IMG/VR virus record: IMGVR_UViG_3300043024_000042
From: a virus
Lineage: Duplodnaviria; Heunggongvirae; Uroviricota; Caudoviricetes
Strand: one strand, 5' to 3'
Length of the DNA: 64,000 nucleotides
Part shown: piece after piece, positions 20,273-36,971 of the stretch
How the letters are laid out: the number at the start of each line of letters is the position of its first letter
Position numbering within the stretch: position 1 is the first letter of the stretch
Position numbers and translations under genes: made by a program
The notes under the pieces: model-generated
What the model was told of the DNA's origin: nothing
Database searches by the model: none
Seen by the model: only the letters and a program-made list of their open reading frames with translations

Positions 20273-20641
20273 CTAACGGGAATGTGGAATGAAGAAGTCT
20301 GTGACAATCTTATCCAATTCCTTTTGCGTGAACGATAGGCAATAGACCTTGCTCTTGCCATCCACCAGGCCCGTTGTATACGATTCAATGAGCAATTCCC
20401 TCGTTTGATGGTCGAACAGATGTGATGGAAGTCTGTCCCGATGCTGCTTGACCAAAATGGCGAGTGGCTGCGGATTATCACCGGTCAGATACTGTTTCGC
20501 GTCGTCAAGTCCTTCCTCGTACTCAATCAGCATCTTCTCCGCAATCTGCTTTGATTCGACATCCTCATGCGCCTTGTTCCTGAAATCGTTGATGAGAGCC
20601 TTTCTTCTCTCTGCTACAACATCCGTTGTCATATCATTCAA
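20273..20641 (-). CDS. hypothetical protein with Y-x-x-G-L-D-D motifs, paralog of 289..759
   Basis: YEEGLDDAKQY and YTTGLVDGKSKVY. Confidence 0.4.
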   Translation of the reverse strand: MNDMTTDVVAERRKALINDFRNKAHEDVESKQIAEKMLIEYEEGLDDAKQYLTGDNPQPLAILVKQHRDRLPSHLFDHQTRELLIESYTTGLVDGKSKVYCLSFTQKELDKIVTDFFIPHSR

Positions 20642-20921
20642 ACTTGATGTTGTGTTCGACTGCGCAGCAGCCCAGCACCCAAGCCTGCTTCTCTGAAATG
20701 AAAGCGACCTGTCTGTGGTTGTTCGGGTCCATGTGGTCGAGAATGGTGTCTGCTACCTGCGCGGCGAATGTCTTGGTCTTTTTTATGGCATCCAAGAAGT
20801 CACCTACATAATAAAATGCAAACTCGAAGTAATCTTCGTTGTTCTCTCTTGTGGCAGTTGAATAACCTTTCAGTCTGTCTGCCACCTTTCTCACGTCATT
20901 GTAGTTCTCTCTTTCAATCAT
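20634..20921 (-). CDS. hypothetical protein, 95 aa
   Basis: ORF overlapping the next gene by 8 nt. Confidence 0.4.
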   Translation of the reverse strand: MIERENYNDVRKVADRLKGYSTATRENNEDYFEFAFYYVGDFLDAIKKTKTFAAQVADTILDHMDPNNHRQVAFISEKQAWVLGCCAVEHNIKFE

Positions 20922-21172
20922 AATCGTTGTTGTTTGGTTTGTTAAATTAATATGCTTCTATGTGTATAGGCCGGTGCAAAACTTGCTTATCCTTTCTATT
21001 TTTGTTTTGTCTCGTACAAAATAGTAAGTTTGTAAGCTTTCATAGAGTGCCGCGTTTCTCTCACTTCATATCGCAGGACATTAAAGCCCTGCGATTTCAA
21101 CCCGTCCACATAATCGGATAGCGTTTTGAAGGAGTTGGCGGTAAGAACCTTGTAGTGTATCATGCCAATTTA

Positions 21173-21466
21173 TTAGAATACGTTTTCGATAGTCTGTTTT
21201 GATACTTCCATCATCAATTCATTCTCGCAATCGTCACCGGTACACAAGTAGTAGAACTCGTATTGATTAGGAAACCCGTCTATCGGTTTCTTTTCATTGC
21301 TAAGCTTTTGCTCAGCTTGGATGAAACCTATCATTTTCTTAACGCTTTCTTCTTTATAGAAAGCAAACGCTCTCTTCGCTGCACGGACATTATCGTACAG
21401 CTTAGATACATACTGAATTTGTCCTCCGTTAATTCTGCGGCAAAGCAACATGTTGTAAACTTCCAT
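21173..21466 (-). CDS. hypothetical protein, 97 aa
   Basis: ORF only. Confidence 0.4.
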   Translation of the reverse strand: MEVYNMLLCRRINGGQIQYVSKLYDNVRAAKRAFAFYKEESVKKMIGFIQAEQKLSNEKKPIDGFPNQYEFYYLCTGDDCENELMMEVSKQTIENVF

Positions 21467-21584
21467 AATCTATAAATTTGGTTTTGCAAAAATACTACAT
21501 CCCAATTGAATACGCAAATATTTTGGACTCAATCTTCGGTAGGTTTGTTCCCGAGTGCCGTTTCACGGGCACAAGGGAAATTTT

Positions 21585-21881
21585 TCAGGAGAAAATGGTG
21601 AATATACTCGCCGCATCGGATAGCCATCCCCAAAAAAAGTCTATCGTATCATCCCATCCGAGCGTCACCCAAAAGAAAGCGAAAGTCAAGATGAAGAACG
21701 GTATCATGGCAGCGGCAAGCCCCTTCCGCCCTTTCTTTGTCCGCAAATCCTCACCTTCTCCCACTATGTAGCAAGTGGCAAGAGGTATGGTTTGCAGCAA
21801 GAGGTATACGATGAATCCCCAAAAGCCAGTCTGCAAGTAGAACAGAATGACGCACAACAATCCAAATAAAATGAACGGCAT
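21585..21881 (-). CDS. small membrane protein, about 3 TM helices
   Basis: Hydrophobic translation directly downstream of the integrase gene. Confidence 0.35.
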   Translation of the reverse strand: MPFILFGLLCVILFYLQTGFWGFIVYLLLQTIPLATCYIVGEGEDLRTKKGRKGLAAAMIPFFILTFAFFWVTLGWDDTIDFFWGWLSDAASIFTIFS

Positions 21882-21882
21882 A

Positions 21883-22860
21883 TCAATAGAAATAATTAAG
21901 GGTTAATGAATTGAATTTCTCTTTCTCTGTGACGAGATACGTCTGCGTGATGGATGTGGACGAGTGACCCATAAACTTGCTTATGGTCAGGATATCCACA
22001 CCGTGCAGATAGAGGTTGCAAGCAAATGAACGTCTTGCAGTGTGCGAACCAATGTATTTGTATTTCTCCCCGATCATGCGTTTCCCGGCGAGGAATACAG
22101 ATACCTTTTGTGTGATGCCAGCCTTCTTGCAAATCTCCCGAACGTAATGGATGAAGGTTGCGAGGGAAACTTCGCGCTCTTTCGCCTGGTTGAAGTAAGT
22201 CAGGAAGTTGCGGTGCAGCGGCACTGCAATGACCGACTTGGACTTCTGCGATACGTAACGGATAATCCTGCTGTCTTCGTCAATCATCTCCTTCTCGATA
22301 AGCATAAGGTCTGACCTTCGTCCGCCAAGATAGAACTCACAGAGCCATTGCGCCTTGCAGATTCTCTCCATTTTGTTCTCCGGCTCATACGCTTCGAGTA
22401 ATGCTATGTCCGCTTCCGAGAGATACACATTCTCTGATGGCTCATCCTTAACGGATAGCACTTCCTTGTAGGATGTGGTCGGAAGTTCAACGTCGTCTCT
22501 CCATAAGTTAAGCACGGCTTTGAGGATCTTCGTGTACGTCCTTACGGTTTTCGCGCAATTCTTATCCTTCATCAGTCGGACGGTTTTAGCCAGATTCTGC
22601 TTTGTGAGGTCCTTCCATTGCGGAAACTTCTTTCCGGTACCTTCTATTACATAAGGGACGATGTTCGTACCATTATTGGGATGCTTTAATAGCAATGCAC
22701 CAACGAATGACTGCGACCACTTCTCAATGTCCTGACCTTTCTTGTAGTAACCAAGGTAGGCAATCCTTCGAGGAATTTTCGGGTCTCCAACACCGTGAAA
22801 AGCGTGTTCGTAGAGATATTTGCCAGCCTCGATTACTGGCACTGAATAACGTACTCCCAT
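21883..22860 (-). CDS. int: tyrosine site-specific recombinase/integrase
   Basis: C-terminal catalytic region HTARRSFACNLYLHGVDILTISKFMGHSSTSITQTYL (R..H..R..Y). The early-gene element and a GC hairpin (GAGCCGC...GCGGCTC) lie upstream at 22861-22920. Confidence 0.85.
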   Translation of the reverse strand: MGVRYSVPVIEAGKYLYEHAFHGVGDPKIPRRIAYLGYYKKGQDIEKWSQSFVGALLLKHPNNGTNIVPYVIEGTGKKFPQWKDLTKQNLAKTVRLMKDKNCAKTVRTYTKILKAVLNLWRDDVELPTTSYKEVLSVKDEPSENVYLSEADIALLEAYEPENKMERICKAQWLCEFYLGGRRSDLMLIEKEMIDEDSRIIRYVSQKSKSVIAVPLHRNFLTYFNQAKEREVSLATFIHYVREICKKAGITQKVSVFLAGKRMIGEKYKYIGSHTARRSFACNLYLHGVDILTISKFMGHSSTSITQTYLVTEKEKFNSLTLNYFY

Positions 22861-23088
22861 ATCGTTTGTTTTTAAGGGTTAATATTAAAGTTAATTGAGA
22901 GCCGCCTGCTTGTCATGGCACTGCGGCTCGACCCCTAAAATGCTGTGTTTTTCTCAACCTCACTTTCTTCCTCACGATTGCAAAGGTAAACAAAATTATT
23001 GATAAACATTTAAATAACAGATAATTATAACAAACTTTATGGTTCCTTGCAATCCTTTTACAGACCGCAAGGATTAAGTTAAAGAGTG

Positions 23089-23328
23089 TTAACCATTATA
23101 ATTCTTTCCGATGTAGTCCAGCAATACCTGCATATAGGAATCCTCCATCTCATAAAACATAGACATGGTGGCATAATCAGGGTGGTTGAAGTTCTCATGC
23201 CTGCTGCACCACTTATTATAGAAGTGCTGGCCCATCACCTTCCCGAAAATCTTCTCGGCTGTTTCATTACTCCATTCATTTGACATGAAGAGAATCACCT
23301 TTCTAAAGTCTTTTGCTTTCATAATCAT
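23089..23328 (-). CDS. small hypothetical protein, about 80 aa
   Basis: First ATG directly downstream of the conserved element is at 23328 (MIMKAKDF..). The ORF-track extension to 23433 runs through the upstream element. Confidence 0.45.
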   Translation of the reverse strand: MIMKAKDFRKVILFMSNEWSNETAEKIFGKVMGQHFYNKWCSRHENFNHPDYATMSMFYEMEDSYMQVLLDYIGKNYNG

Positions 23329-23384
23329 TTGTTTTAAAGGGTTAGTATTCGCAGCAAGCGGGATTGTCACATCCCGCCAGCCAA

Positions 23385-23729
23385 TCATAATTGGTTGAAT
23401 CCGATAATCGTTTCTTCCAGCCGGTCCTTCCAATCATCGTAATCGTCAAGAGCCTTTCGGATTGTGAAACATTCTCGAAATTTCGGGTCATTCCACTGGC
23501 TCATCAGTTCCTCATCGGCATCGAAATCGTTGTAGTATTCTTCAAGATTCTCGATGGTAAATGGGGTAAGCGAGATGATCATGTCAATGTCATGCTCTGT
23601 CCACGATTCAACCTCTGCGCAGATTCCCTCTTTCTGTCGGAACAAATGTACGTTGTAGTCATTGTCACACAGATAATCGTAGAGTCTTTTCTGCTCTTTG
23701 TCTAACATTTCATACGTTACTTCTTCCAT
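23385..23729 (-). CDS. highly acidic small protein, candidate DNA mimic or anti-defense factor
   Basis: Very Asp/Glu/Tyr/Trp-rich (YYNDFDADEELMSQWNDPKF..DDYDDWKD). Conserved upstream element at 23733-23752. Confidence 0.45.
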   Translation of the reverse strand: MEEVTYEMLDKEQKRLYDYLCDNDYNVHLFRQKEGICAEVESWTEHDIDMIISLTPFTIENLEEYYNDFDADEELMSQWNDPKFRECFTIRKALDDYDDWKDRLEETIIGFNQL

Positions 23730-23795
23730 ATTGCTTGTTTTAAAGGGTTAATAATCGCTGGAGGGTAGCGTACTACCGCAAGCCCTCCATAATAC

Positions 23796-24353
23796 CTACT
23801 CACCTTTGTAGACATAATTCCCGTCTACTAACTCATAATCACTCTTGCACTCTTCCCAAAGTTGGAACACGATATCCCAAGCCTCACGAGCATTTGGATC
23901 AGGATGATTACTGTCAGTTTCCTCTCCGTTTTGTATGACAAGGAATCCGCAGTTATATGTGAAATCCTCGTCAACGTATGTCAGTTCAAAGGCAACATCG
24001 GGGAACTTCTTGGAGAGCGCAAGTATGGCGGGCTTCGGCGTGTCCCACGGAGTTGTAAAGAAACACAAATGCCTTTCACGATTAATGAATACTTCGTCGG
24101 TGTTCCATTTGCATCCCCACTTATCCCATCTCCAATCATGCCAGTCAGCATAGCCGTATTTTCTCTTGTTGGATTCTCTACGGTTCTCGCGCTCCTTCTG
24201 ATTTAGACCGGTGATATCCAATCCCTTGGGCATCGGTACAATTTTGTTGAGGTCAAAGTCACTCTCATCGCTACGCACGAAGTCAAACACTGCGTTTACA
24301 GCCTCCATGTCGTCACTTACAATTACCAAACCGTTACGTACTTCATTTGCCAT
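23796..24353 (-). CDS. hypothetical protein, 185 aa, Trp-rich
   Basis: Upstream element at 24357-24372 plus hairpin GGCGG..CCGCC. Confidence 0.45.
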   Translation of the reverse strand: MANEVRNGLVIVSDDMEAVNAVFDFVRSDESDFDLNKIVPMPKGLDITGLNQKERENRRESNKRKYGYADWHDWRWDKWGCKWNTDEVFINRERHLCFFTTPWDTPKPAILALSKKFPDVAFELTYVDEDFTYNCGFLVIQNGEETDSNHPDPNAREAWDIVFQLWEECKSDYELVDGNYVYKGE

Positions 24354-24413
24354 AATCTAATTATTTTAGGGTTAATAATCGCGAGGCGGGCGGCTATCAA
24401 ACCGCCATCCTCT

Positions 24414-24650
24414 TTAGTACCGCTCTATCAGTCTTGACTTTCTCGGCTTACTGTGCAGATAATCTCGCTCTATTGTGGCGAACGTGCCATTATGGAGGAT
24501 GCCGTATCGCCAAAGTTTCACAAACAGCGGTTTCTCACCATACTGCTCGATGTACATCTTGGTACCGGAGTTGCTGGTGAATTCCTCGTAATGATAGATG
24601 CGTGTCATATCACCACATGATTTCAAGGTCGCCACTTCCATCAAACTCAC
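24414..24650 (-). CDS. hypothetical protein, 78 aa
   Basis: Overlaps the upstream gene by about 40 nt. Probably translationally coupled. Confidence 0.35.
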   Translation of the reverse strand: MSLMEVATLKSCGDMTRIYHYEEFTSNSGTKMYIEQYGEKPLFVKLWRYGILHNGTFATIERDYLHSKPRKSRLIERY

Positions 24651-24963
24651 GCTCCAAGACCGACATCATCCAGTCGTATGCCTGGCCGTAAAGTATGGTG
24701 GATGGTTTACGGTCCTCGAAATTCACTTCATCAGGGTAGGATACTTTCAGATATCCCACATGGCCATCAGGCGAAGTTGCAACAAATTCGCTTTTGGCAA
24801 GCCGCACATACAGCCTGACCATACCGAAGATTTTAACCTTGCACAGCTCAAAGGAAATGCTTGTACCGTCACCATTCTTAGTGATGAACACTTTCGCAGT
24901 TACACCATACGGTGTTCTGTTCTGAATCTTAACGAAGTCAGAACGCAGATCATTTTTCTTCAT
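24610..24963 (-). CDS. hypothetical protein, 117 aa
   Basis: Variant of the upstream element at 24967-24985. Confidence 0.4.
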   Translation of the reverse strand: MKKNDLRSDFVKIQNRTPYGVTAKVFITKNGDGTSISFELCKVKIFGMVRLYVRLAKSEFVATSPDGHVGYLKVSYPDEVNFEDRKPSTILYGQAYDWMMSVLEREFDGSGDLEIMW

Positions 24964-25025
24964 ATCTCTAAAATTTATTGGTTACACATCGTATGCACCG
25001 GGCCTGCCAAAGCCCGGCACACAAT

Positions 25026-25409
25026 TCAGGATTCACTAATCTCGTCATTATCATCGGTGCAGACGAACTCCATATCGGGGTATACTTTCCGCATCATGCC
25101 CAGCAGCCTCTCCATATTACCATGAGGTGTGATGTCATGGAACTCCACGGACAGCCTGCGGTCGGGCAGTGTACTCACACCTATGTAGTCAATCACGTGC
25201 CAGCTGAGGTCGTCGAGCAGTGCGCTTGTTGCAAGCTCCTTGATGGAGCCATGCACCTTGTCAATATCGAACTCCTTCACCAAATCATCAGAATCTTCCT
25301 GCGACTTGGTAATGGAGTGGAACCACGCGAAGAATGACTTCGCCATCTTGTCTGTGCCCATGCACTCTACGTACTTTTTGATGTTGTTTGCCATAATCTT
25401 ACCCTTCAT
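25026..25409 (-). CDS. hypothetical acidic protein
   Basis: ATG at 25409, or alternatively 25394. Overlaps or abuts the stop of the upstream gene. Confidence 0.4.
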   Translation of the reverse strand: MKGKIMANNIKKYVECMGTDKMAKSFFAWFHSITKSQEDSDDLVKEFDIDKVHGSIKELATSALLDDLSWHVIDYIGVSTLPDRRLSVEFHDITPHGNMERLLGMMRKVYPDMEFVCTDDNDEISES

Positions 25410-25830
25410 GTAATTCACTGAGATTCGCTTCCACCTCGCTTGTACCATCGGTAAGGAGGATAATCATATCCTCATACCAATAACCCTCGTTCGAGCGGAT
25501 TTTGGATACCTTGTAGTATCCTGACGTTCCTTTCGGGTCGGGGTCATTCCAATACACTTCGTTGCCGACGCGGACGAAAGGATAACGCTCTCTCAATCTC
25601 TCGTTCTCCTTCTTTTCGTTGTCGTACCAAGTATTGATAATCTCGTCGAAACTTTGCAGTTTGTCGTACAGACCTTTCTCTTTGAGAAGTGGGCGAATCT
25701 TGTACATGGCTTCCGCGATAATCTCATTGCACTCAACCTCTATATCCGAATCCTCGAAGTAGGAGGTGTAGATGTGAGCGTTTTGCAGGCTCTGCATCAT
25801 GTTGTACGCAGCATAATCATTTCCTTTCAT
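25399..25830 (-). CDS. acidic protein with an RLRxxYPFxxVG domain shared with 28661..29425
   Basis: ATG at 25830 downstream of the element at 25838-25855. C-terminal ERLRERYPFVRVGNEVYW..YYKV.. is paralogous to RRLRAEYPFLKVGAYVRV..IYKV.. in 28661..29425. Confidence 0.45.
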   Translation of the reverse strand: MKGNDYAAYNMMQSLQNAHIYTSYFEDSDIEVECNEIIAEAMYKIRPLLKEKGLYDKLQSFDEIINTWYDNEKKENERLRERYPFVRVGNEVYWNDPDPKGTSGYYKVSKIRSNEGYWYEDMIILLTDGTSEVEANLSELHEG

Positions 25831-25898
25831 ATCAATTCTTCTTTTAGGGTTAATGAATAATTGCGGAATAGCGGACTTGTTCAGCCCGCTAAACCATG

Positions 25899-26267
25899 TC
25901 ACTTGCTCATCTCCTTAATGGCTTTTCGCAACATCTCAATATCGCCAATGCACGGATCACCATCCTCGAGCGGCCAGTAGTACGCTCCATTCGGGATGTA
26001 GATGCGGTCAGAGAACTCGGTCTTATCAACATCCGTAATGAAGAGGAACTTTACCTTGTCCTTGATATACCAGAACCAATATTCAGTCCATTCCCAATCT
26101 TCTATCTGATGGTGGCTTATCTCACAGAACTTGTGGACGTTCTTGATGTCGTCGCCACAAAGTTTGAATAACTTGTCGATGCCTTCCCAGGCCTTGGCGA
26201 TGTTCTTAGCCTTTTCTACGGTCATGCGTTCACGCTTTGCATCTTGCAATGAATCTTCTCTTGTCAT
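25899..26267 (-). CDS. hypothetical acidic protein, 122 aa
   Basis: Upstream element at 26272-26290. Confidence 0.4.
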   Translation of the reverse strand: MTREDSLQDAKRERMTVEKAKNIAKAWEGIDKLFKLCGDDIKNVHKFCEISHHQIEDWEWTEYWFWYIKDKVKFLFITDVDKTEFSDRIYIPNGAYYWPLEDGDPCIGDIEMLRKAIKEMSK

Positions 26268-26332
26268 AATCTAATAATTTAAATGGTTAAACAATAGCCA
26301 GCCGGTATGATGCCACTCATACCGACCCTTCC

Positions 26333-26545
26333 TTAATGCAGAAGTTTCTCAATCTCGAATCGCAACAAGTTTTTAGTGAGAGCCTTGCCTCCACATAACA
26401 CACCATTCAGAATACATGAGAACTCATAACCGGGGATTGGAGCCATGTGGCTTGTAAACGCAATGGCAATGCTGCGCTTATACTTTCCAACCTGCTCATC
26501 GTTGAGGATAATCCTTCCGTCATGTGATAATGTCAAATGATTCAT
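26333..26545 (-). CDS. small hypothetical protein, 71 aa
   Basis: ATG at 26545 (MNHLTLSHDG) downstream of the element at 26553-26570. Confidence 0.4.
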   Translation of the reverse strand: MNHLTLSHDGRIILNDEQVGKYKRSIAIAFTSHMAPIPGYEFSCILNGVLCGGKALTKNLLRFEIEKLLH

Positions 26546-26609
26546 AATACAATGTTTAAATGGGTTAATATCGCAGCCGATGCGGTTACTGCACCGCAAG
26601 GGCTTTCAA

Positions 26610-27005: not shown

Positions 27006-27064
27006 ATCTATTAATTTTGGTGAAACATCGTACCCGTCCGCAGTGTCACCCACGGACGGACTTT

Positions 27065-30201: not shown

Positions 30202-30259
30202 TTTAATTAGGGGTTAATAATCGCAGGCGGAACGTCTGCTAAAACGAACCGCCCATCCA

Positions 30260-30871
30260 TCATTCTTCTTGCCTGCTCTTTGCGATGCACATAGCACAGA
30301 AGTCACGTCCGACCCAGTTCTCGCTCTGATAGTCATAACCGCCCTGAAACTTGATTACGTTGCCAAGGAGGAACGTGTAATACACAACCTTTGGCGATTT
30401 CACGACTTTCATGCGCTCCTCATCGACTTTAAGGGGTTTCTCGCTTTCACGATACGTCTGCGTGAAGAACTGGGCGAAATCGCCATCATCCATGAATTCA
30501 TCAATTCGCAACACCACGTTCACTTCGTACCAACCGCTGTTCCATCTCATTTTCAACTCGCTGTAATCAACAAACTCATGGCGGTGTGCGGTCATAACGT
30601 AGTCTACGGTCTGCAAGACACCTCTCGCACTGCTTATGTCACTCTGCTCTGTCATTGGAAAGGCTTGCATGATTATGCCCAACTTCTTCGGTGTGAGTAT
30701 GTCCGTATCACTTTCACCACCGTAGAACTTAACATAGTACCTGCCGTCCTTAACCATGAAGATTGATGCGCGTACACCTTTCGGCTCGAGGTCGCGATTC
30801 AACTCATTTTCGAGTTTGGCGATTTTCAACTTTCGCTCGAACTCCGCTTTCATTTTCTCAATATCATTCAT
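30260..30871 (-). CDS. hypothetical protein, 203 aa
   Basis: Upstream element at 30880-30897. Confidence 0.45.
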   Translation of the reverse strand: MNDIEKMKAEFERKLKIAKLENELNRDLEPKGVRASIFMVKDGRYYVKFYGGESDTDILTPKKLGIIMQAFPMTEQSDISSARGVLQTVDYVMTAHRHEFVDYSELKMRWNSGWYEVNVVLRIDEFMDDGDFAQFFTQTYRESEKPLKVDEERMKVVKSPKVVYYTFLLGNVIKFQGGYDYQSENWVGRDFCAMCIAKSRQEE

Positions 30872-30935
30872 ACGTTCAATATTAAAGGGTTAAACAATGC
30901 AGGCGACCCGCTTATCAAAGCAAGTCGCCATTCTT

Positions 30936-31277
30936 TTACGAGAATTGGTGAATGTGCTGGCGCAACCATTTTGTTTCATCGGGCCAACTTTGCCCTGCAC
31001 AATAGGTTGCTCTACCATCTAAATCAATCCACAATCGCTCGCATAGTCCACACGATCTATACAAAGTGTATAAGTCGTCTTTCTTTCGCAAATCAATAGT
31101 CTTAGCGAAGAGATTAACAATTTGCGTGCGCGCCTCGTCGGATAGTTGGAAACGCACCCATTTACGCTTTTTTGTGTAAATTGCACCAGCAATAAAGTTA
31201 TGCAGCGTAAGTCTGCCATCTCTCGTTTGTGCGATTAAGCCTTTCAATGTCTTGTAATTCCTTGTAATCATACTCAT
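30936..31277 (-). CDS. hypothetical basic protein, 113 aa
   Basis: Variant upstream element at 31295-31310. Confidence 0.4.
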   Translation of the reverse strand: MSMITRNYKTLKGLIAQTRDGRLTLHNFIAGAIYTKKRKWVRFQLSDEARTQIVNLFAKTIDLRKKDDLYTLYRSCGLCERLWIDLDGRATYCAGQSWPDETKWLRQHIHQFS

Positions 31278-31355
31278 TTGAATTTAGTGAAACATAGGGT
31301 TAATATAGTAGCCGTGCAGATAGTTAAACCTGCATGGCCTAAGTCTGAATACAAA

Positions 31356-31784
31356 TTAGAGGTAATCCGGAATAAATTCAAGAAGTTCCTTGATAGACGT
31401 GGAATCATCGTTTAAATCATGTTCCAAATCCTCTCTGTACTTATTAATTTCGGAAGGTTGGAGGTTGCGTAAAATATCCCAAAGGAATTTGCGCTTTTCC
31501 TTTCGTTCGGTCGGCATCAGGTCGTTCTCCCACATATCGGGATTGCAATCCATGCCCCAATCTTCAAAAAGTCTGCGTTTCGCTCCAAAGCTTAAAAGTC
31601 GCGCGGAGTGTACCTTGCAGTACAAACTTACGATTTTAAAGACTTTATTTAAGCGCCCGTTCTCATTTTGTGTCCGAAAATTGAGACACCCGTAATCACG
31701 CAGTGCCAAATCATAATGTAATTCCTTAATGCGCTTTTCCTGCTCCAGCAGTTCGCGCGGAGTTCTTTTCCTTATCATACTCAT
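31356..31784 (-). CDS. hypothetical protein, 142 aa
   Basis: Upstream element at 31790-31808. Confidence 0.4.
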   Translation of the reverse strand: MSMIRKRTPRELLEQEKRIKELHYDLALRDYGCLNFRTQNENGRLNKVFKIVSLYCKVHSARLLSFGAKRRLFEDWGMDCNPDMWENDLMPTERKEKRKFLWDILRNLQPSEINKYREDLEHDLNDDSTSIKELLEFIPDYL

Positions 31785-31842
31785 TCATTTTAGGGTTAAT
31801 AATGCAGGCCCGCGGGTTGTCACACCACGTCGGGCCGTTCGC

Positions 31843-32103
31843 TCATCGAACGTGAAGGTTAACTTCCTGGATCGTATACAAGTTCTCGATACCATCCTTG
31901 AACTTAAAGGTGGCGCACCACGTTTCTTTATCGTAGTGGCCTACACCGTCGTTAAAGTCGTGACCGAGTTGCTCCAGCAAGTTCCGGATATACTCTTCGG
32001 CAAGTTCCAATTCACCAAAGCGTTCGCGCCAACATTCATCCCATGTACGGGAATCGGGGTCGTAGGTTTCCTCTATCACCTCGTAGATTTTCTTAATAGT
32101 CAT
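31843..32103 (-). CDS. small acidic protein, 87 aa
   Basis: ATG at 32103 (MTIKKIYEVIEETYDPD). Upstream element at 32112-32130. Confidence 0.4.
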   Translation of the reverse strand: MTIKKIYEVIEETYDPDSRTWDECWRERFGELELAEEYIRNLLEQLGHDFNDGVGHYDKETWCATFKFKDGIENLYTIQEVNLHVR

Positions 32104-32167
32104 AATGTTTGCTTTTAAAGGGTTAATAGTCGATGCCGCCCACCAAAGGGCAGGCACCGGAGGTCGT

Positions 32168-32497
32168 TCAGGCGAAATAAATCTGGCACATATTGTTCGC
32201 ATTACGGAAATAGTGCAGTGAATCACGGAACGGATCCATGATTCGTTTCACCCGCTCGCTGTCCTGCTTGCAGATTTTCACGATGATATTGCTCAGGGAA
32301 CGCACCCTGAATTCGAGAATGGCGGAACGCTTGTGCAGTTGACGGTAGTCGTTCAGCGTTTTCTTACACACGCTCGCTCTGCGCAAATTGTTCAGTGAAT
32401 TGGTCACGCTCTCAATCTCATCATACATTCTGTCCATCACAGCCAGGGCACGGCGCTCGTTGAACGTCATACCCGATTCGTCAATCTTTCTATTCAT
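32168..32497 (-). CDS. hypothetical protein, 109 aa
   Basis: Variant upstream element at 32505-32525. Confidence 0.4.
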   Translation of the reverse strand: MNRKIDESGMTFNERRALAVMDRMYDEIESVTNSLNNLRRASVCKKTLNDYRQLHKRSAILEFRVRSLSNIIVKICKQDSERVKRIMDPFRDSLHYFRNANNMCQIYFA

Positions 32498-32664
32498 ATC
32501 TATAAATTTTATTGGTTAATTATCGTACTCCGTGATTGTTTTACCAATAACACGGAGCTGGGGTTAATCAGAGGTCGAAAATCGGACTCCACTCAAAACT
32601 ATCTTCCAGTTCGGGAAGGTACACCAAATTACCGTTCATTACCATTTCCGCGTTCATAATCCGT

Positions 32665-32817
32665 TCACTTTAAAGATTCCACATAACACATTACACTCAC
32701 ACTGCCAAAGAAACACAGCAGGAATACGGCCGCGCTTACATAGGAATTACCGAATAAGGGTGTTGCGAGAATACCCAGGGCGAGCAGATAACGCACGCAG
32801 TTCATAAACTTCTTCAT
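32665..32817 (-). CDS. small membrane protein, 50 aa, not in the ORF track
   Basis: ATG at 32817 six nt downstream of the element at 32823-32842. MKKFMNCVRYLLALGILATPLFGNSYVSAAVFLLCFFGSV. Confidence 0.4.
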   Translation of the reverse strand: MKKFMNCVRYLLALGILATPLFGNSYVSAAVFLLCFFGSVSVMCYVESLK

Positions 32818-32881
32818 ATCATTTGTTTTTAGGGGTTAATAATCGCACCGCGGGGAATTGTCGTACTCACCCGCGGCCATC

Positions 32882-33160
32882 TTAGCAAGGGCGCCAGCCG
32901 TTTCTCGTCTGCCAGTAGGCCGATTCAATCAAATATTCAGCCAGATTGTTCGCCGCCTCTTTCATCTCGCCCTCATCGGGTCGCTCATCGCACATGGGCA
33001 CGGCATCTGCAATCATCTGGCGAACTTTCAACATTCGCGCCACGGCTCGTTTTACCGGATTCTCGCCTCTTACAATCTGTTTTGCCAAGAGGAATATCAC
33101 ACGGTCCATCCGGGCCTCAAACTTACGGTCGTTCGTGACCACTACACTCAGTACTTCCAT
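32882..33160 (-). CDS. hypothetical protein, 92 aa
   Basis: Upstream element at 33168-33188. Confidence 0.4.
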   Translation of the reverse strand: MEVLSVVVTNDRKFEARMDRVIFLLAKQIVRGENPVKRAVARMLKVRQMIADAVPMCDERPDEGEMKEAANNLAEYLIESAYWQTRNGWRPC

Positions 33161-33226
33161 ATCATTTAATTTTAGGGGTTAATAATGTATCCGTGTGAAT
33201 TATCGTACTCACACGGAATTCTCGTA

Positions 33227-33448
33227 CTACGGAGGCAGGCCTATCAAGTCGGTTTCCCTGAACTTGTAGGCCGCAAGCAATTCCCGTACATCTTTACTCA
33301 GTTCAACCCGTGGAATCATAATGAATTCGTTCGGCTGAACACGCAGCTCAACCACCTTAATAAGGTAGTGCAGGACAAAAGCCAGATCACTCGTGGAAAT
33401 CTGACTTGCTTTTACTCTGTACGCTTTTCTCGTACTCATTCGTATCAC
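33227..33448 (-). CDS. hypothetical protein, about 71 aa
   Basis: GTG at 33448, or ATG at 33439. Variant upstream element at 33455-33475. Confidence 0.35.
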   Translation of the reverse strand: MIRMSTRKAYRVKASQISTSDLAFVLHYLIKVVELRVQPNEFIMIPRVELSKDVRELLAAYKFRETDLIGLPP

Positions 33449-33533
33449 ATCTATTTTAAGGGTATTTTAAGGCCCGCCAGTGAGTTTTCACACTCAAAGG
33501 CGGTAAAGTGTACGCGCGGGGAATAAAACGCGC

Positions 33534-33830
33534 TTAAATCGCAGTTTTCAGCCGTGCGTAATTACGTTTCGCCTCGTTCAGGCCGTTTGCCAGTTCGCAG
33601 ATTCTTCTTGCAAGGTTCTTGCAAGCGTTCTCCACCTCGTAGGGCGCAACCTGTTCGGGTATCCGTTCGATGAAATCATCTACAATCGCATGAAGTTGGT
33701 TGAATCGTGAAACGGTGCGCGCGTTCATTACGCTGCCGCCCTCTTCGATTTTGATCGCTACGTACTCAATGATTCTCATAATGCGGCCCATGTAGTTACC
33801 GCTCTTCCAGATTCTTTCTTCGATTTTCAT
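33534..33830 (-). CDS. hypothetical protein, 98 aa
   Basis: Upstream element at 33838-33858. Confidence 0.4.
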   Translation of the reverse strand: MKIEERIWKSGNYMGRIMRIIEYVAIKIEEGGSVMNARTVSRFNQLHAIVDDFIERIPEQVAPYEVENACKNLARRICELANGLNEAKRNYARLKTAI

Positions 33831-33899
33831 ATCATTTAATTTTAGGGGTTAATAGTGCAGCCCTGCCGGTTGTCACACCATGCAGGGCCGAAGAAAGAT

Positions 33900-34025
33900 T
33901 TACGCTATCTTTGCAACCGTCCAGTTCAAAGATTCTGCATACTCACTCAACACGTTTTTATCCGTGTCAATCATTCTCACTTGATTCTGTTCGTCCAGGA
34001 GTCCGAATAATTCATTTTGTTTCAT
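33900..34025 (-). CDS. small protein, 41 aa, not in the ORF track
   Basis: ATG at 34025 directly downstream of the element at 34030-34048. MKQNELFGLLDEQNQVRMIDTDKNVLSEYAESLNWTVAKIA. Confidence 0.35.
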   Translation of the reverse strand: MKQNELFGLLDEQNQVRMIDTDKNVLSEYAESLNWTVAKIA

Positions 34026-34093
34026 ATCACAAATTTTTAGGGGTTAAACAATAAGTAAGCGAACCACCGGTAAGAGTGATTCGCTTTAATCGT

Positions 34094-34405
34094 TCAGGCG
34101 ATTTTTACTTTGATTCCATGCGCCTGGAGTTGTTCGGCTGTAAAACCGTATCGAATGATTTTCTTTTTAAGTGATTCGATAAAACACTTCTTTTGATAGT
34201 CAAACTCTTCTTGATCCAGTTGCCCGTTCAAAAATCGTTCGCGCGCACCTTTCAGCGTATCGTAGTCAATAACCGCTGAAAGCAGATTAATTTCAGGCGA
34301 GCCGAATTCAAGGTGTTTTCGTTCGCCCCGCTCGTTCGGCTCGTTTGCGGCACGGCGCAAATTCATCTTTGCTTTTCGCTCGTACCAGTCCATCATTCCT
34401 AACAT
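34094..34405 (-). CDS. hypothetical protein, 103 aa; first gene of the minus-strand block next to the candidate origin
   Basis: Upstream element at 34412-34432. Confidence 0.4.
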   Translation of the reverse strand: MLGMMDWYERKAKMNLRRAANEPNERGERKHLEFGSPEINLLSAVIDYDTLKGARERFLNGQLDQEEFDYQKKCFIESLKKKIIRYGFTAEQLQAHGIKVKIA

Positions 34406-34435
34406 ATCATTTAATTTTAGGGGTTAATACTAAAT

Positions 34436-35456
34436 CGTTCGGCCGGATCGTTCATTTAACAAAACCGTTCATCAACCGTTCGGCCACAATGAACCCGCCG
34501 CCGGTGCAAACCAGTAGCGGGCAAACCTATTTCATTTTCACAAAATCGTAGGGGCAAAATGTTTGATAGCGCCGTTAACCCTACGGCAAAACACCTTGCA
34601 GGGCGCCCCTGTTTTCGCAAATTAGAGCGCCTAATTAGATATGATATATACCGCGGTGTAGCCTGAGCCACACCACGGCGGGGATTATACGGGCCACGGG
34701 CGCGCGTGCCCAAATAAAAAGTTATCATAATAAAATGCACATATATCAACCGCACATATATCAACCACACGGGCACGAACTACCCGGCCGTATATTTCAG
34801 CCCCCCGCTCCGCTACATAATAACCCGGTACCGATACACCACGTTTCCACCTTTCGATCATCCAGCACATTCACCACCGCACCCCCATCTAAATCGACTT
34901 GTATACGGCCGCACGTTGTGCGCGCCCTTGTATATAGTATCTCTTTATCCGGTGCCCACCACCACCGAAGTGGCGGAGGGTTAAGCAAATAGCGCTTATC
35001 CCGTCACCTTGTCAGTACGTGGGGCACGCTATTTGTCAAGTGTTTAAGTGGGTAGCACCTGGGGCAGCACGGACTCCCCGGGGACTTTTAGTTATTATTA
35101 CACTTTGTTTTTCAGGCCGACCCCATCAAGTGGGGCCCCTTTGATGTCAGTCCGACGGGCAAACCACGGCGCCCAACTCGTGGGCAGTTGTGGGCTACTT
35201 AGCAACCAGCAACCAGCTCCGGGCACGTCTAAGCGGGTAGCTAGGCCGCCCCACGTTGTGGGCGCGGCACCCCGCAAGGAAGTACCAGGACATGAGCAAC
35301 CCCGCACGTTGTGCGGCAGTATGCAACCGGAGGCGGTGACCTTTGGCCATCCGTCAGTAATAGAGCGCTTTTTTTTTGATAGTTGGCGGGCGGGGAGTCG
35401 GACCCCGCAGAAGAGCACCGGCACCGCCAGAGCCGCACGAGGCGGCAGGGCCTATA
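34436..35456. promoter_or_regulatory. repeat-rich non-coding region: candidate replication origin or regulatory hub
   Basis: CGTTC repeated 4 times at roughly 11-bp spacing (34440-34495). A 13-bp tandem repeat GCACATATATCAACC occurs twice (34737-34764) beside an AT-rich stretch. CACGTTGTG occurs 3 times (34912, 35246, 35306). GGGCACG occurs 3 times. Several GC hairpins and a T9 run at 35369-35377. The only ORFs here are overlapping ones typical of GC-rich non-coding DNA. Confidence 0.35.
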
Positions 35457-36380
35457 TTAGGCCACGAGTTTAGCGGCGAGCACGGCCGCAAGCTCAGGCT
35501 CTACACCGCCATCGACGAGCACGGCCGCAGCGTCAGCCAGAGCGCGGGCACGCTTTTCGGCGGCTTCCTTTTCGGCGGCCTCCTTGTTAGCCATGTCAGA
35601 GGTTGCAGCCCGATAGTCCCTGTTAACCTTTTCGGCCGCGCGGATACCACGTTTTTCGGCACGCTCTAGACGCTTTTCTGCTGCGACCTTAGCGCGGATA
35701 GAGGCGAGCACGCCACGGACGCCGTAGACGGCCACACCGCGAGCGTCAACCACGCGCCCGTAATAGTCTAGCAGGCAGTCAGACAGTACCAGCTTATTAT
35801 AAGGCACGAGGCGCAGCACGTCGAGCACGTGTTTTTCATCATCCGTCAGATCCTGGCAGGCTGCAACCTTAGCGCGGGCGGTCTTAGCAATCTTGTTAAC
35901 CAAGTTGATAGATTTGGCCGGGCTTAGTTGATCCGCATCCACCACGGCCGCGCGACGCTCAGCGCACTTTGCTAAGTAGGACGAGTAAGCCGCATCCGAC
36001 AGAGCCGCGAGGCGGGAGGACTGCAGGGTGATAGCGTCAGCGGCAGCAGCATCCGCCAGAGCCGCGGGCACCTCATCCGCCATACAGTCAGTAACCGCGA
36101 TATATTCGCGGACAGCGGCGGCGGCCGAAGTATCGGCAGCGACGGCGTCAGCGTCAGCCAGAGCGAGGGCACGCAGAGCGTAGAGGCGCGGGGATACTTG
36201 CAGCGACGCGGGTACGGAGTCGGCCGCACGTTTGACGACGAGCTCCGGAGATTGTGACGAGATAGCCACGTATACACGAGCATTAGAGGACGCAGACGCG
36301 GGAGCTACAGACTCAGAGGTCGCAGGGGCAGCGACTCCTAATACATTCACTGATTGATTGTTTCTTTCTTCAGTTTTCAT
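35457..36380 (-). CDS. alanine-rich (about 30% Ala) coiled-coil protein, function unknown
   Basis: Gene-strand upstream sequence ATTATTAACATTTAAATACAAAAGATTATG is a variant of the early-gene element. Very GC-rich coding sequence, so the ORF could be partly an artefact of GC richness. Confidence 0.4.
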   Translation of the reverse strand: MKTEERNNQSVNVLGVAAPATSESVAPASASSNARVYVAISSQSPELVVKRAADSVPASLQVSPRLYALRALALADADAVAADTSAAAAVREYIAVTDCMADEVPAALADAAAADAITLQSSRLAALSDAAYSSYLAKCAERRAAVVDADQLSPAKSINLVNKIAKTARAKVAACQDLTDDEKHVLDVLRLVPYNKLVLSDCLLDYYGRVVDARGVAVYGVRGVLASIRAKVAAEKRLERAEKRGIRAAEKVNRDYRAATSDMANKEAAEKEAAEKRARALADAAAVLVDGGVEPELAAVLAAKLVA

Positions 36381-36971
36381 AATCTTTTGTATTTAAATGT
36401 TAATAATAAATTGACTTCTATTACAAATTTACCACTTTATTTTAATACCTCAATCATATACGCAAAGAATTTGGGGAGTATTTTAGTTAAAATCCGAAAA
36501 AAGTTATAAAACGCTGAAAATAAGGTAGTTATAATAGTCGATATGCTACACTTGTAATATTTAAAAATAGCCGGTACCCCCCCCAATTATAGATATAAAA
36601 AATTTGACCCTTGACCTCCAAAATATTTTTCCCATCTTAAATTTTCCCCAATCCAATTTTTTCCATTTCCCCAAATATCCATTTCCCCAGCTCTAAATTC
36701 CCGCTCAAAGATTTTTTCTCAAATCTTGACACGTTTACATTCCTTAACACTATTTTAACATTACGAAGGTATGTTTAAATATTGCTAATATGTTTGCGAT
36801 ATTGTATGACATTGCTATCTTTGGCACATCGTAACATGGTTGCGTAACCATTTGGGTTATATGGAAATTACGCAGATTACGTATTTATACCCTATCCCCC
36901 TTATCTCCCGCGTTTGTGGATTTGTATATGGGCCAGAATAGAAGTATTAATTTTATATAGCCCGAAAAATT

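Follow-up and report, generated by a model that had tools for sequence, protein, structure and literature searches.

In Bacteroidota, the lack of a Shine-Dalgarno (SD) sequence is the norm and is no peculiarity of the genes described here. For Bacteroidia, A-3, A-6, A-12 and A-13 have been published as determinants of translation initiation; a G at -3 stacks on G693 of the 16S rRNA (PMC6847099; PMC13000457). With GeneMarkS-2, a TAAAAA core was described that lies ~7-9 nt before the start of first as well as internal operon genes, and it was stated that this core 'cannot be a promoter' (PMC6028130).

Here, we analysed a 64,000-nt stretch of DNA (the window) from a LoVEphage-like temperate phage of Bacteroidales, in which a block of small minus-strand genes carries a conserved element 5' of the ATG. 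From its sequence, we consider it fairly probable that this element is an mRNA leader, i.e. an SD-independent Bacteroidota translation-initiation region, with an extra upstream box.

A leader cassette repeated along a block of small genes

The initial annotation described a conserved ~28-nt element in at least 25 clean copies. A 24-nt position weight matrix (PWM) anchored on TTAACC gave 25 sites at a threshold of >=10 bits, all on the minus strand at 21,916-36,413, while neither the plus strand nor the rest of the window contained any; because 22 of these 25 sites served to build the matrix, only three (36413, 24995 and 23355) are independent finds. Moreover, all 17 example coordinates of the annotation coincide with motif-bearing ATG positions. 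The 25 cassette copies span 21,879-36,413, with no copy elsewhere in the window, and follow the consensus ATTATTAACCC(C)TAAAA-N9/10-ATG, with TTAACC starting 21-23 nt (~22) 5' of the ATG in most copies. When up to three mismatches were allowed, the 19-mer CGATTATTAACCCCTAAAA had 11 matches, exclusively on the minus strand, and none in 100 shuffles. Three degenerate copies (27388, TAAACC; 27005, TTCACC; and 33448) come in addition to the 25. The few block genes lacking a cassette are instead coupled by stop/start overlap, and the last four block genes (21466-20273) have no PWM-level motif. The block and its leader copies are listed below with strand, PWM score and the dG (kcal/mol) of the upstream structure.

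21585..36413, minus, block of ~30 small genes with hairpin and leader cassettes, from the ORF chain and upstream regions; contains every PWM match
36378..36413, minus, gene 36380, variant TTAACA, no hairpin; 13.0; -0.5
34403..34437, minus, gene 34405, weak hairpin; 22.7; -6.4
34023..34057, minus, gene 34025, 5' stem-loop; 21.4; -16.6
33828..33862, minus, gene 33830, 5' stem-loop; 25.5; -22.9
33158..33192, minus, gene 33160, 5' stem-loop; 27.5; -16.5
32815..32849, minus, gene 32817, 5' stem-loop; 30.0; -19.9
32495..32529, minus, gene 32497, 5' stem-loop; 18.6; -15.4
32101..32136, minus, gene 32103, 5' stem-loop; 26.9; -20.9
31776..31809, minus, gene 31778, 5' stem-loop; 23.2; -21.4
31275..31313, minus, gene 31277, core to ATG 26 nt, 5' stem-loop; 15.3; -16.2
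30869..30903, minus, gene 30871, 5' stem-loop; 22.4; -20.6
30193..30227, minus, gene 30195, 5' stem-loop; 25.9; -16.3
29848..29881, minus, gene 29850, 5' stem-loop; 21.1; -19.6
29423..29458, minus, gene 29425, 5' stem-loop; 26.7; -14.7
28596..28631, minus, gene 28598, 5' stem-loop; 15.4; -19.6
28210..28244, minus, gene 28212, 5' stem-loop, cassette kept in relatives' homologues; 22.3; -13.7
26543..26578, minus, gene 26545, 5' stem-loop; 18.4; -17.8
26265..26300, minus, gene 26267, 5' stem-loop; 15.0; -17.4
25828..25863, minus, gene 25830, 5' stem-loop; 19.4; -19.2
24961..24995, minus, gene 24963, variant GTAACC, 5' stem-loop; 11.1; -22.3
24351..24385, minus, gene 24353 (DUF1281_C protein, Pfam), 5' stem-loop; 25.3; -19.4
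23727..23761, minus, gene 23729, 5' stem-loop; 28.7; -17.4
23320..23355, minus, variant CTAACC, 5' stem-loop, redefines the gene start to 23322 (in-frame ATG present); 21.8; -18.8
22858..22892, minus, tyrosine integrase gene (22860-21883); 22.9; -17.5
21879..21916, minus, gene 21881, no hairpin, embedded in the integrase ORF at its 3' end, gap 1 nt; 16.1; -4.5
27386..27420, minus, gene 27388 (first one 3' of promoter box 27488), degenerate leader TAAACCATTATTAG; 18-bp complementarity to small-RNA candidate B
27003..27035, minus, degenerate leader of gene 27005, variant TTCACC, 5' stem-loop; dG -19.0

When 24 copies were aligned on the ATG, A was present at -12 in 23, at -13 in 19 and at -6 in 17; 22 copies had a purine at -3. 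G makes up 4.5% of the leaders at -26..-4 vs 19.5% in the other genes of the window, and the unpaired probability at -22..+9 is 0.58 in the leaders vs 0.50 (p=0.0005). We conclude that the leaders are built for lack of structure. Consistent with the initial annotation, the element has no SD complementarity and leaves no room for a -35/-10 promoter. The variant copy reported at 6219 is present but weak (TTAACC at -19; PWM <10), and the gene there, called Cas12f-like, is TnpB-like with a score below the curated cut-off.

The block genes are, as described, many and small (ORFans), and roughly fit the description as mostly acidic, 21 of 33 proteins having a pI <7 by a tally of the pI list. Almost no Pfam matches were obtained among the block proteins, which the initial annotation took for a typical early anti-defence arsenal, and a PHROGs scan of a subset was equally uninformative.

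In homologues of the 222-aa gene with 32-66% identity, the hairpin, AACC, TAAAA and ATG are kept; thus, the motif is not absent from homologous genes of related phages but retained with them. The upstream neighbours are non-homologous, and similarity begins at the leader. Since the cassette is kept while its upstream neighbours differ, the array is mosaic. Because the cassettes travel with genes and are near-identical, they would also mark joints of gene swapping between related phages.

Stem-loops, promoter boxes and small-RNA candidates

A GC stem-loop without a U-tract precedes 22 of the 25 copies and sits 4-8 nt upstream of the leader; in these 22, structure in the 45 nt 5' of the motif reaches dG <= -13.7 kcal/mol, while a value of -12 kcal/mol is attained in just 12% of control windows. 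The hairpins had been regarded as private to each gene, but several share loop motifs such as GTGACAA and GTACGAYAAT. Hairpins with a T-run behind them show no enrichment (16 observed vs 16.3 expected), and in both the integrase gene and gene 27388 a promoter box belonging to the gene precedes the stem-loop, which in turn precedes the leader; the integrase stem-loop and leader are both 3' of that gene's box. The missing U tracts noted previously were confirmed. Based on the lack of T-run enrichment and on this order of elements, we conclude that the hairpins are not terminators. In-silico disruption of the hairpin left leader accessibility unchanged (0.584 vs 0.570, p=0.14); thus, a role of the hairpin in insulation is unsupported. 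The GC stem-loop would be a separate RNA-level part of the 5' module of each cistron, most likely protective or processing-defining, in that it would cap the upstream segment and head the downstream one.

The block contains four ordinary host-type promoter boxes:

36424..36431, minus, host-type sigma-A -7 box TAAATTTG at the block head, without a well-spaced -33 TTTG
27481..27512, minus, host-type promoter TTTG-N20-TACATTTG inside the block, box 27488
22981..22988, minus, host-type -7 box TACCTTTG 5' of the integrase gene
21487..21518, minus, host-type promoter TTTG-N20-TATTTTTG, box 21494, predicted mRNA start near AACCAAATTTATAGATTATG

Transcription of the 15-kb block of ORFan accessory genes seems to yield a small number of polycistronic mRNAs, which would start at the ordinary host sigma-A boxes 36431, 27488, 22988 and 21494.

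Two putative minus-strand small RNAs (candidates B and C) contain complements of leader-like sequences:

62886..63001, minus, candidate C, contains a leader-copy complement; canonical promoter TTTG-N20-TACCTTTG with -7 box 63006-63013; hairpin and U-run terminator
62915..62945, plus, orphan copy CCTGCTTAACCCTAAATTCAATGATATG resembling a leader, with a 3-codon ORF behind it; template of the complement in candidate C
17634..17722, minus, candidate B; canonical promoter TTTG-N19-TATATTTG with box at 17734; terminator

Candidate C is predicted to fold at -53.6 kcal/mol (z -7.4) vs -40.0 for the plus strand, and its promoter and helix are conserved in a relative (L317). The complementarity of candidate B to the leader of gene 27388 extends over 18 bp, including two G.U pairs.

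Occurrence in host genes and rival explanations

The 18-mer GATTATTAACCCCTAAAA had 41 matches in one-genome-per-species GTDB, ~16 of them in Bacteroidota as tallied from record titles; in ~10 matches an ATG follows at 8-14 nt, and several precede ordinary genes, identified by eye as those for GreA, rubredoxin, alanine dehydrogenase and an SPFH protein. In IMG/VR, a 16-mer occurs 82 times, and 30 of these instances have an ATG 8-13 nt downstream, most often at 10 nt, together with an ORF of >=40 aa; the same 16-18-mer occurs at the same ATG distance in many unrelated viral contigs. By contrast, only 2 of 20 instances of a box-scrambled 16-mer and 1 of 63 of a reversed 16-mer were start-associated. 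Therefore, the start association of the upstream TTAACCCC box is sequence-dependent. Among the other genes in motif-bearing phage loci, TTAAC (8x) and TAACC (5x) show the strongest enrichment of all 5-mers at -27..-14; in Bacteroidota genome loci TAACC is enriched 4.3x, as estimated from a small host-gene sample (~10 seeded genes, 122-211 crude ORF starts) with the first ATG per ORF taken as the start. The box is apparently general, in that part of the host and phage genes throughout the phylum have it.

TAnnTTTG boxes lie 1-51 nt 5' of the element at four host loci (L088, L090, L113 and L116) and three viral loci (L022, L032 and L043), and likewise in the window at 36431 and 22988; the leader copy of gene 36380 lies 18-20 nt 3' of the box TAAATTTG. 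Because the element is 3' of these boxes, it is inside 5'UTRs, and its position follows the ATG rather than the transcription start.

We found no support for the lead reading of the initial annotation, in which a phage-specific promoter would give rise to leaderless mRNAs. The element is not private to phages, it lies at a variable distance from the canonical TAnnTTTG boxes upstream of it but at a fixed distance from the ATG, and its 3' half agrees with the known non-SD ribosome-binding region of Bacteroidota. Moreover, the block has its four host-type boxes, and scans of 20 larger ORFs outside the block and of the window's nine largest ORFs revealed neither an RNA polymerase nor a sigma factor. 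On the other side, a promoter ~10 nt 5' of the ATG would also be expected to keep a fixed distance to the ATG. The occurrence before host housekeeping genes similarly weakens the second option, an operator for a phage regulator. The third option, an RNA-level control element, comes close to the translation leader that the evidence favours.

The element as a probable translation-initiation region

As a translation leader, the element would read 5'-AUUAUUAACCC(C)UAAAA-N9/10-AUG, be nearly devoid of G and have a purine at -3. This would be a version of unusual completeness and uniformity, and each cistron would carry its own standard ribosome entry site. The part comprising TAAAA, A-6 and the purine at -3 would correspond to the already described Bacteroidia initiation signal, and UUAACCC(C) at -22..-15 would be an additional sequence-specific upstream box, possibly read at the level of the ribosome or bS1 in an enhancer-like manner. 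No convincing accessible complement of the TTAACCCC box was found in 23 Bacteroidota-type 16S rRNAs, and our literature search found no description of a "UUAACCCC" box. The uniformity of the block goes far beyond the needs of translation and points to an added layer, i.e. common regulation, gene conversion or recombination. Altogether, the 3' half of the element, in which TAAAA near -14..-10 is combined with A-6 and a -3 purine, matches the published SD-less signal of Bacteroidia; the element in the window differs from that signal in that it adds the upstream "UUAACCCC" box.

Probable host, gene content and the repeated cassette

The window is the first 64 kb of the 99-kb metagenome contig JGI 3300035521 Ga0376476_0000007, the remaining 35 kb of which lie outside it. 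It encodes structural proteins (terminase, portal, major head protein and a 3,268-aa tape measure) as well as a D5-type primase, a tyrosine integrase, ParA and a TnpB-like protein. Because the portal (40-44% identity) and the primase (25-30% identity) have their nearest relatives in LoVEphage-type phages of Bacteroides and Phocaeicola, and because canonical Bacteroidota promoters of the form TTTG-N19/20-TAnnTTTG are present in the window, the host is almost certainly a member of the Bacteroidales; we infer its place in the Bacteroidota from portal identity and promoter type, not from a direct assignment.

The 17-kb block of about 30 small minus-strand genes, which we name by the coordinate of their ATG, had no match in a nucleotide search against GenBank phages. 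Rfam returned nothing for the block, the sole match having E=0.96, and apart from DUF1281_C and the integrase, neither Pfam (block proteins) nor PHROGs (a subset of these) gave informative matches; by these searches the block genes are ORFans. In an exact protein look-up, the close relatives of the block were 100% identical to the window.

The window also holds features apart from the cassettes. Its only tRNA gene (46527-46600, plus strand) is a tRNA-Met with a CAT anticodon that reads like an initiator tRNA; the acceptor ends are CGCGGAG...CCCCGCAA, giving a C1xA72 mismatch, the anticodon stem has only two of three G:C pairs, and we take the arms to be close to those of E. coli tRNA-fMet. A phage-borne initiator tRNA would suit a genome with standardised start sites. 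The large terminase ORF (43306-46011, minus strand) is 901 aa long; its terminase match begins near residue 430, while the first 340 residues have matches to P-loop families of primases, helicases and helicase loaders. Two plus-strand ORFs, 10619-11590 and 12443-12895, are apparently the halves of a split C5 cytosine DNA methylase; one matches the profile over positions 2-234, the other over 258-322, and the stretch of about 850 nt that separates them holds two small ORFs. Relatives found through ParA have at least eight copies of TATGATTATAAATG upstream of the parA operon (L321 2100-2260 and L322 2150-2300), which probably serve as sites for partition or as operators.

At the head of the block, the first gene (35457-36380, minus strand) encodes a 307-aa alanine-rich protein without a family match, and its DNA has repeats at 57-nt spacing. 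The otherwise tightly packed block is broken at 34450-35450 by about 1 kb without a credible ORF or family match, around which GC is raised (0.533 in the 34,001-36,000 profile window) and within which the palindrome GCCGCACGTTGTGCG occurs three times. The divergent region between the block head and the primase gene contains four or five TGGGGAAAAT-like repeat copies (36600-36710) and may be a replication origin.

The initial annotation had described an element, preceded by a hairpin, that is shared by the genes of the block. The 19-mer reported there, allowing up to three mismatches, gave 11 matches, all on the minus strand, compared with 0 in shuffles. Moreover, a 24-nt position weight matrix anchored on TTAACC detected 25 sites that score 10 bits or more; every one of them is a minus-strand site within 21,916-36,413, and the rest of the window has none. 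Three of these 25 sites were not used in building the matrix, and one of the three redefines the gene start at 23322; the motif corrects gene starts elsewhere as well, e.g. at 31778. In total, the repeated hairpin-plus-leader is confirmed.

The intergenic gaps are uniform, mostly 59-78 nt, and follow the order stop codon, 0-10 nt, a stem-loop of 28-33 nt, 4-8 nt, TTAACC, about 22 nt and ATG, with TTAACC starting 21-23 nt before the ATG in most copies. Degenerate versions of the leader precede genes 27388, 27005 and 33448, and a few block genes are joined by a stop/start overlap in place of a cassette. The near-identity of 25 leader copies in one genome is unusual.

One leader copy (21879-21916, minus strand) lies wholly within the 3' end of the integrase coding region, without a hairpin, and serves the next gene, the ATG of which falls 1 nt after the integrase stop codon. 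A lineage-specific, weakly conserved sequence, (G/A)CGAT(T/A)A, recurs immediately 5' to the box as well as within some loops of the hairpins. In the related viral contig L075 (1320-1470), six or seven AGTACGATAA copies occur within 150 nt upstream of a leader copy, and the GTACGAYAAT of these repeats is also found in two hairpin loops and beside one box in the window; this repeat may be a lineage-specific protein-binding site.

Position and sequence of the proposed leader

It had been proposed that the element is a promoter for leaderless or very short-leader mRNAs. Where canonical -7 boxes (TAnnTTTG) lie nearby, they are upstream of the element and at variable distance, i.e. 5, 21, 31 and 51 nt in four host loci, 1, 19 and 30 nt in viral loci and, in the window, about 20 nt (first block gene) and about 100 nt (integrase). 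In two host cases the element directly follows the upstream coding region, and it precedes internal operon genes of hosts, as in L103 and L107. Thus, the element is transcribed and is positioned by the ATG and not by the transcription start; as it lies inside 5' untranslated regions in host and phage, the proposal is not supported. Within the block, intergenic canonical -7 boxes on the minus strand were found in four places only.

Canonical promoter elements in intergenic regions of the block
36431, minus strand: -7 box at the head of the block
27488, minus strand: perfect promoter TTTG-N20-TACATTTG inside the block
22988, minus strand: -7 box before the integrase
21494, minus strand: -7 box in the block

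This distribution suggests that the block is transcribed as a few multi-gene mRNAs in which each cistron would have its own ribosome entry site.

In an alignment of 24 leader copies on the ATG, the conserved positions are T-14 (20/24), A-13 (19/24), A-12 (23/24), A-11 (18/24) and A-10, followed by A-6 (17/24) and a purine at -3 (22/24; G in 13 and A in 9). G is nearly absent from -26 to -6, and the leaders therefore have no Shine-Dalgarno (SD) complementarity; over -26 to -4, the G fraction is 4.5% compared with 19.5% for other genes in the window. The predicted unpaired probability over -22 to +9 is 0.58 for the leaders and 0.50 for other window genes (p=0.0005). In Flavobacterium johnsoniae, A-3, A-6, A-12 and A-13 were measured as determinants of initiation (PMC6847099), and G-3 was seen stacked on G693 of 16S rRNA (PMC13000457). 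The 'group B' non-SD motif of GeneMarkS-2 is A-rich with the core TAAAAA about 7-9 nt from the start, precedes first as well as internal operon genes in Bacteroides and Flavobacterium and, as its authors state, cannot be a promoter (PMC6028130).

The leader extends the published A-run by UUAUUAACCC(C) at -26 to -15. In the literature searched, we found no description of this box, and searches with the motif sequence returned only unrelated matches and papers on the T3 promoter. An exact scan of IMG/VR for TTATTAACCCCTAAAA gave 82 instances, 30 of which are followed 8-13 nt later, most commonly after 10 nt, by the ATG of an ORF that is 40 aa or longer. By contrast, only 1 of 63 instances of the reversed 16-mer and 2 of 20 instances of a 16-mer in which only the AACCCC box was scrambled were start-associated; start association thus depends on the order of bases in the box. 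Several unrelated contigs contain whole arrays of leaders (L060, with ten copies, L003, L020, L021 and L075). A short-query BLAST of the motif against phages gave mostly AT-rich noise.

The 18-mer GATTATTAACCCCTAAAA had 41 matches in GTDB with one genome per species. About 16 of them, counted from record titles, are in Bacteroidota, including Bacteroidaceae, Muribaculaceae, Prevotella, Chryseobacterium and Labilibaculum, and about 10 matches sit 8-14 nt ahead of the ATG of ordinary genes. We take the host genes behind the 18-mer, named by eye, to encode GreA, rubredoxin, a desulfoferrodoxin-like protein, alanine dehydrogenase and an SPFH protein. The idea that the element is specific to this phage must therefore be given up, as the same motif occurs in host genomes and in unrelated viral contigs.

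The box recurs beyond the copies used as seeds. When the seeded copy is left out and the remaining genes of motif-bearing phage loci are considered, AACC has its peak at -22 to -19, and the most enriched 5-mers at -27 to -14 are TTAAC (8-fold) and TAACC (5-fold). TAACC is enriched 4.3-fold in Bacteroidota genome loci, and non-Bacteroidota genome loci have no AACC peak at -22 to -19. Pairing of the motif with rRNA found no support: among 54 small-subunit rRNAs, 23 of them of Bacteroidota type, the best motif/16S duplex averaged -13.3 compared with -10.9 for shuffled motifs, with an equal margin in non-Bacteroidota, and we found no convincing accessible 16S complement. The recurrent pairing site, UAGGGGUU, near position 290, lies in our own reading inside a 16S helix, paired with the downstream GGUCCCC.

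Altogether, the element is best read from these alignments and scans as a translation leader of the SD-less Bacteroidota type in an extended, sequence-specific form, and leader and stem-loop as a cassette that would accompany each accessory gene. Promoter and operator readings of the element are unlikely.

Stem-loops, probable gene exchange and candidate small RNAs

Upstream of 22 of the 25 copies, the adjoining 45 nt fold with -13.7 kcal/mol or stronger, whereas only 12% of control windows get to -12 kcal/mol. As initially remarked, the hairpins lack U tracts: hairpins with a T-run number 16 in the window compared with 16.3 expected from shuffles, and only 3 cassette hairpins pass the combined hairpin and T-run scan. 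A terminator reading of the stem-loops was rejected on the same comparison with shuffles, and a role of the hairpin as insulator found no support, since in-silico shuffling of the hairpin region left leader accessibility unchanged. For the integrase and gene 27388, the stem-loop is located between the gene's own promoter box and the leader and, therefore, belongs to the downstream 5' untranslated region. In other phages, a strong hairpin is present at about 40% of the start-associated copies compared with 0% of the non-start copies, and the distance from hairpin to box varies from 3 to 12 nt. Because only this fraction has it and because this distance varies, the hairpin is a separable element. 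It may protect the mRNA or define its processing, acting as a 3' cap for the upstream segment and as a 5' stem for the downstream one.

Absence of the motif from homologous genes in relatives had been named as an observation that would speak against the element. The 222-aa protein encoded at 28212-27544 has homologues on three short contigs (66%, 53% and 32% identity), and each of the three is preceded by a hairpin, (TT)AACC, TAAAA and ATG; the cassette is therefore kept. The upstream neighbours of these homologues (L129, L130 and L131) are not homologous to those in the window, the downstream neighbour in L131 matches a window gene six genes away, and L130 is similar in nucleotide sequence from the leader onward, starting 27 nt ahead of the ATG. 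Block genes thus appear to be shuffled between relatives while the cassette is conserved.

Outside the block, two minus-strand loci, candidates B and C, combine a canonical promoter and a hairpin/U-run terminator with the complement of a leader-like sequence, and a third candidate is without a leader complement.

Candidate small RNAs outside the block
About 63,001 to 62,886, minus strand: candidate C, promoter TTTG-N20-TACCTTTG and terminator
About 17,722 to 17,634, minus strand: candidate B, promoter and terminator
17762-17834, minus strand: third candidate, canonical promoter and hairpin/U-run terminator, z -6.4

Candidate C contains the complement of CCTGCTTAACCCTAAATTCAATGATATG, after which the plus-strand 'gene' is only 3 codons long. 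Its predicted fold is -53.6 kcal/mol (z -7.4) as minus-strand RNA compared with -40.0 kcal/mol as plus-strand RNA, and a relative with 77% identity keeps the promoter architecture and the long helix, with two compensatory changes in the inner hairpin. Candidate B pairs through 18 contiguous bp (two G.U) with -26 to -9 of gene 27388, the first gene after the internal promoter; no other start region offers it a helix better than 13 bp. When other loci were searched systematically for orphan antisense copies, the output was swamped by noise. Close to candidate C, on the plus strand at 63114-63231, a canonical hairpin and T-run terminator lies about 60 nt downstream of a -7 box (TATCTTTG) and just ahead of the leader TAAACCTAAAAAGAGATG that belongs to gene 63232; box and terminator could form an attenuator or delimit a short plus-strand RNA.

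Four other explanations of the cassettes were weighed against a translation leader. It is quite unlikely that the element belongs to an unrecognised promoter class, which host RNA polymerase would read with alternative or phage-modified specificity, starting transcription a few nt before the ATG, so that each gene would be a near-leaderless unit closed by the next hairpin. Since 24 of the 25 cassettes are without a host-type promoter box, something else might drive them, and by direct reading TAAAAT is a possible -10-like hexamer ending about 9 nt before the ATG. We also presume that ATTAACCC resembles the T3 RNA polymerase promoter. The order of stem-loop, conserved block and ATG moreover mirrors that of the promoter early stem-loops (PeSLs) of T4-like phages (PMC4122927). 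However, the motif lies downstream of canonical boxes in hosts, other phages and the window alike and precedes internal host operon genes, the hairpins are without U tracts, the 3' half of the leader reads position by position as a translation signal, and in Bacteroides and Flavobacterium only about 4-5% of mRNAs are leaderless (PMC7366714; PMC9723704). No RNA polymerase, which a promoter of the single-subunit (T3/T7-like) class would call for, and no sigma factor was found among the window ORFs scanned, 35 kb of the contig being outside the window. Somewhat more credible, though still unlikely, is that the uniform leader is the common target of a phage-encoded trans-acting factor that switches the block together, either an antisense small RNA (B or C) or an RNA- or DNA-binding, stoperator-like repressor; this would be compatible with the leader also serving as a ribosome entry site. 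The uniformity of the leaders exceeds what a translation signal needs, and the promoters, terminators and leader-like complements of B and C, the 18-bp helix of B, the 13.6 kcal/mol strand difference in the folding of C and its compensatory changes all point in this direction. In RNAduplex, C pairs better with array leaders than with other start regions (-20.6 compared with -17.3; p=0.002); by contrast, its contiguous helices with array leaders are not significantly better than those with other AT-rich start regions (p=0.09). Moreover, part of the complement in C is paired with the 5' end of C itself in the predicted fold, the structure of C rests on two distinct sequences only, the B region is not recognisable in the relatives found through ParA (62% ParA identity), and the occurrence of the motif in hosts and unrelated phages speaks against a phage-specific operator. 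Common regulation of the block by antisense RNAs would be a minority possibility.

In a further explanation, the cassettes would mainly be recombination joints, i.e. near-identical modules of 30-60 nt for inserting, deleting or swapping single genes, as proposed for PeSLs, the module sequence being whichever expression signal got duplicated. The unrelated upstream neighbours of the 222-aa homologues, the displaced neighbour in L131 and the onset of similarity to L130 at the leader fit this explanation, as do cassettes that look paralogous with compensated stems (33852 and 31799) and an orphan cassette at 62.9 kb. Nevertheless, this evidence comes from three short contigs only, and recombination alone explains neither the fixed distance to the ATG, nor the identical 16-mer in unrelated phages and before host genes, nor the dependence on box sequence; we regard it as very unlikely. 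An integron-like array, in which the hairpins would be attC-type sites for the tyrosine recombinase at 21883-22860, would account for promoterless genes in one orientation with an imperfect palindrome after each, for a recombinase encoded in the block and for mosaic gene content, and by direct reading a few copies contain GTTTAAC, which fits RYYYAAC. However, the recombinase scores 29 bits against the cut-off of 265 of the integron-integrase model TIGR02249, and stem and loop span about 28-33 nt, whereas attC sites are 57 nt or longer. Moreover, no paired R''/R' boxes flank the hairpins, no conserved complementary box lies 5' of them, and the box keeps its spacing from the ATG and not from the hairpin. 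The integron reading was rejected on the model score and the hairpin sizes, and we consider it extremely improbable.

A combined model brings the leader and the small RNAs together, and we hold it to be doubtful: UUAUUAACCCCUAAAA would be a ribosome-recruiting enhancer of the Bacteroidota that substitutes for the SD sequence, and B and C would switch translation of the block. In this model, UUAUUAACCCCUAAAA would act sequence-specifically, with bS1 or some other component of the 30S platform as its reader; some of the strongly expressed host genes would use it, their phages would have copied it, and B and C, complementary to the uniform leader, would turn the accessory arsenal on or off together.

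Significance and comparison with known systems

As determinants by which ribosomes of Bacteroidia choose a start codon without SD pairing, the literature consulted names only scattered adenines and low structure. To these, the present analysis adds a putative leader, long, highly conserved and sequence-dependent, that many phages share with host genes. Reporter, toeprint and cryo-EM experiments thereby gain a defined target, and the leader could be a ready-made strong 'RBS' part for Bacteroides engineering. For phage biology, the cassettes illustrate how a temperate phage of the gut can carry dozens of uncharacterised accessory genes in interchangeable units that would be expressed uniformly, and the uniformity of these suggests a route to co-regulation. 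An A-rich non-SD signal is known already; the extension by the TTAACCC(C) box would be new.

With the non-SD initiation region of Bacteroidota, the leader shares an A-run at -14 to -10, about 9 nt from the ATG, a purine at -3, A-6, the lack of an SD sequence, low structure and a position before first as well as internal cistrons; the published signal is a short A-rich core, whereas the leader here is extended by the UUAUUAACCC(C) box. We take this box to resemble the epsilon enhancer of T7 gene 10, UUAACUUUA, about 25 nt upstream of the AUG, and TTAAC is the most enriched 5-mer at -27 to -14 here. However, epsilon works together with an SD sequence in E. coli, whereas the leaders here have none.

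PeSLs of T4-like phages (PMC4122927) likewise consist of a stem-loop, a conserved expression block and a start codon, and are repeated between small ORFans in a plastic region in which relatives swap genes. Here, a stem-loop lies directly upstream of the conserved block in 22 of the 25 copies. PeSLs coincide with indels or replacements between relatives; on this point, the block has ORFan genes, the neighbours of which differ in three short related contigs. By contrast, a PeSL contains a host sigma-70 promoter with -35 and -10 elements, whereas the cassettes here are without a host-type TTTG/TAnnTTTG promoter: no TAnnTTTG box was found inside them, and a sigma-70-type scan gave 39 sites compared with 28.6 expected, none recurring in cassettes. 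The conserved block here is best read as a translation leader.

The nearest conceptual relatives of the cassette are the SAS/ESAS elements of Cluster K mycobacteriophages, for which a translation role was proposed (PMC3203893). Like them, the element is an asymmetric repeat a few nt upstream of many gene starts, in one orientation and in the non-structural half of the genome; in both systems, an inverted repeat often precedes it, and it is conserved across relatives before different genes. However, SAS hardly occurs in the host genome or in other phage groups and has an SD core, whereas the motif here is common to host genes, is found in host genomes and unrelated viral contigs, and is without SD. 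Similarly, ESAS repeats have a conserved sequence and no RNA pairing, whereas the stems here vary in sequence and keep their pairing. Finally, the stoperators of Cluster A mycobacteriophages resemble the element in being many short asymmetric sites in short gaps, oriented with transcription. Stoperators are repressor sites specific to a phage cluster and are not tied to a start codon, a contrast also drawn in the SAS paper; by contrast, the element described here is phylum-wide and anchored to the ATG.
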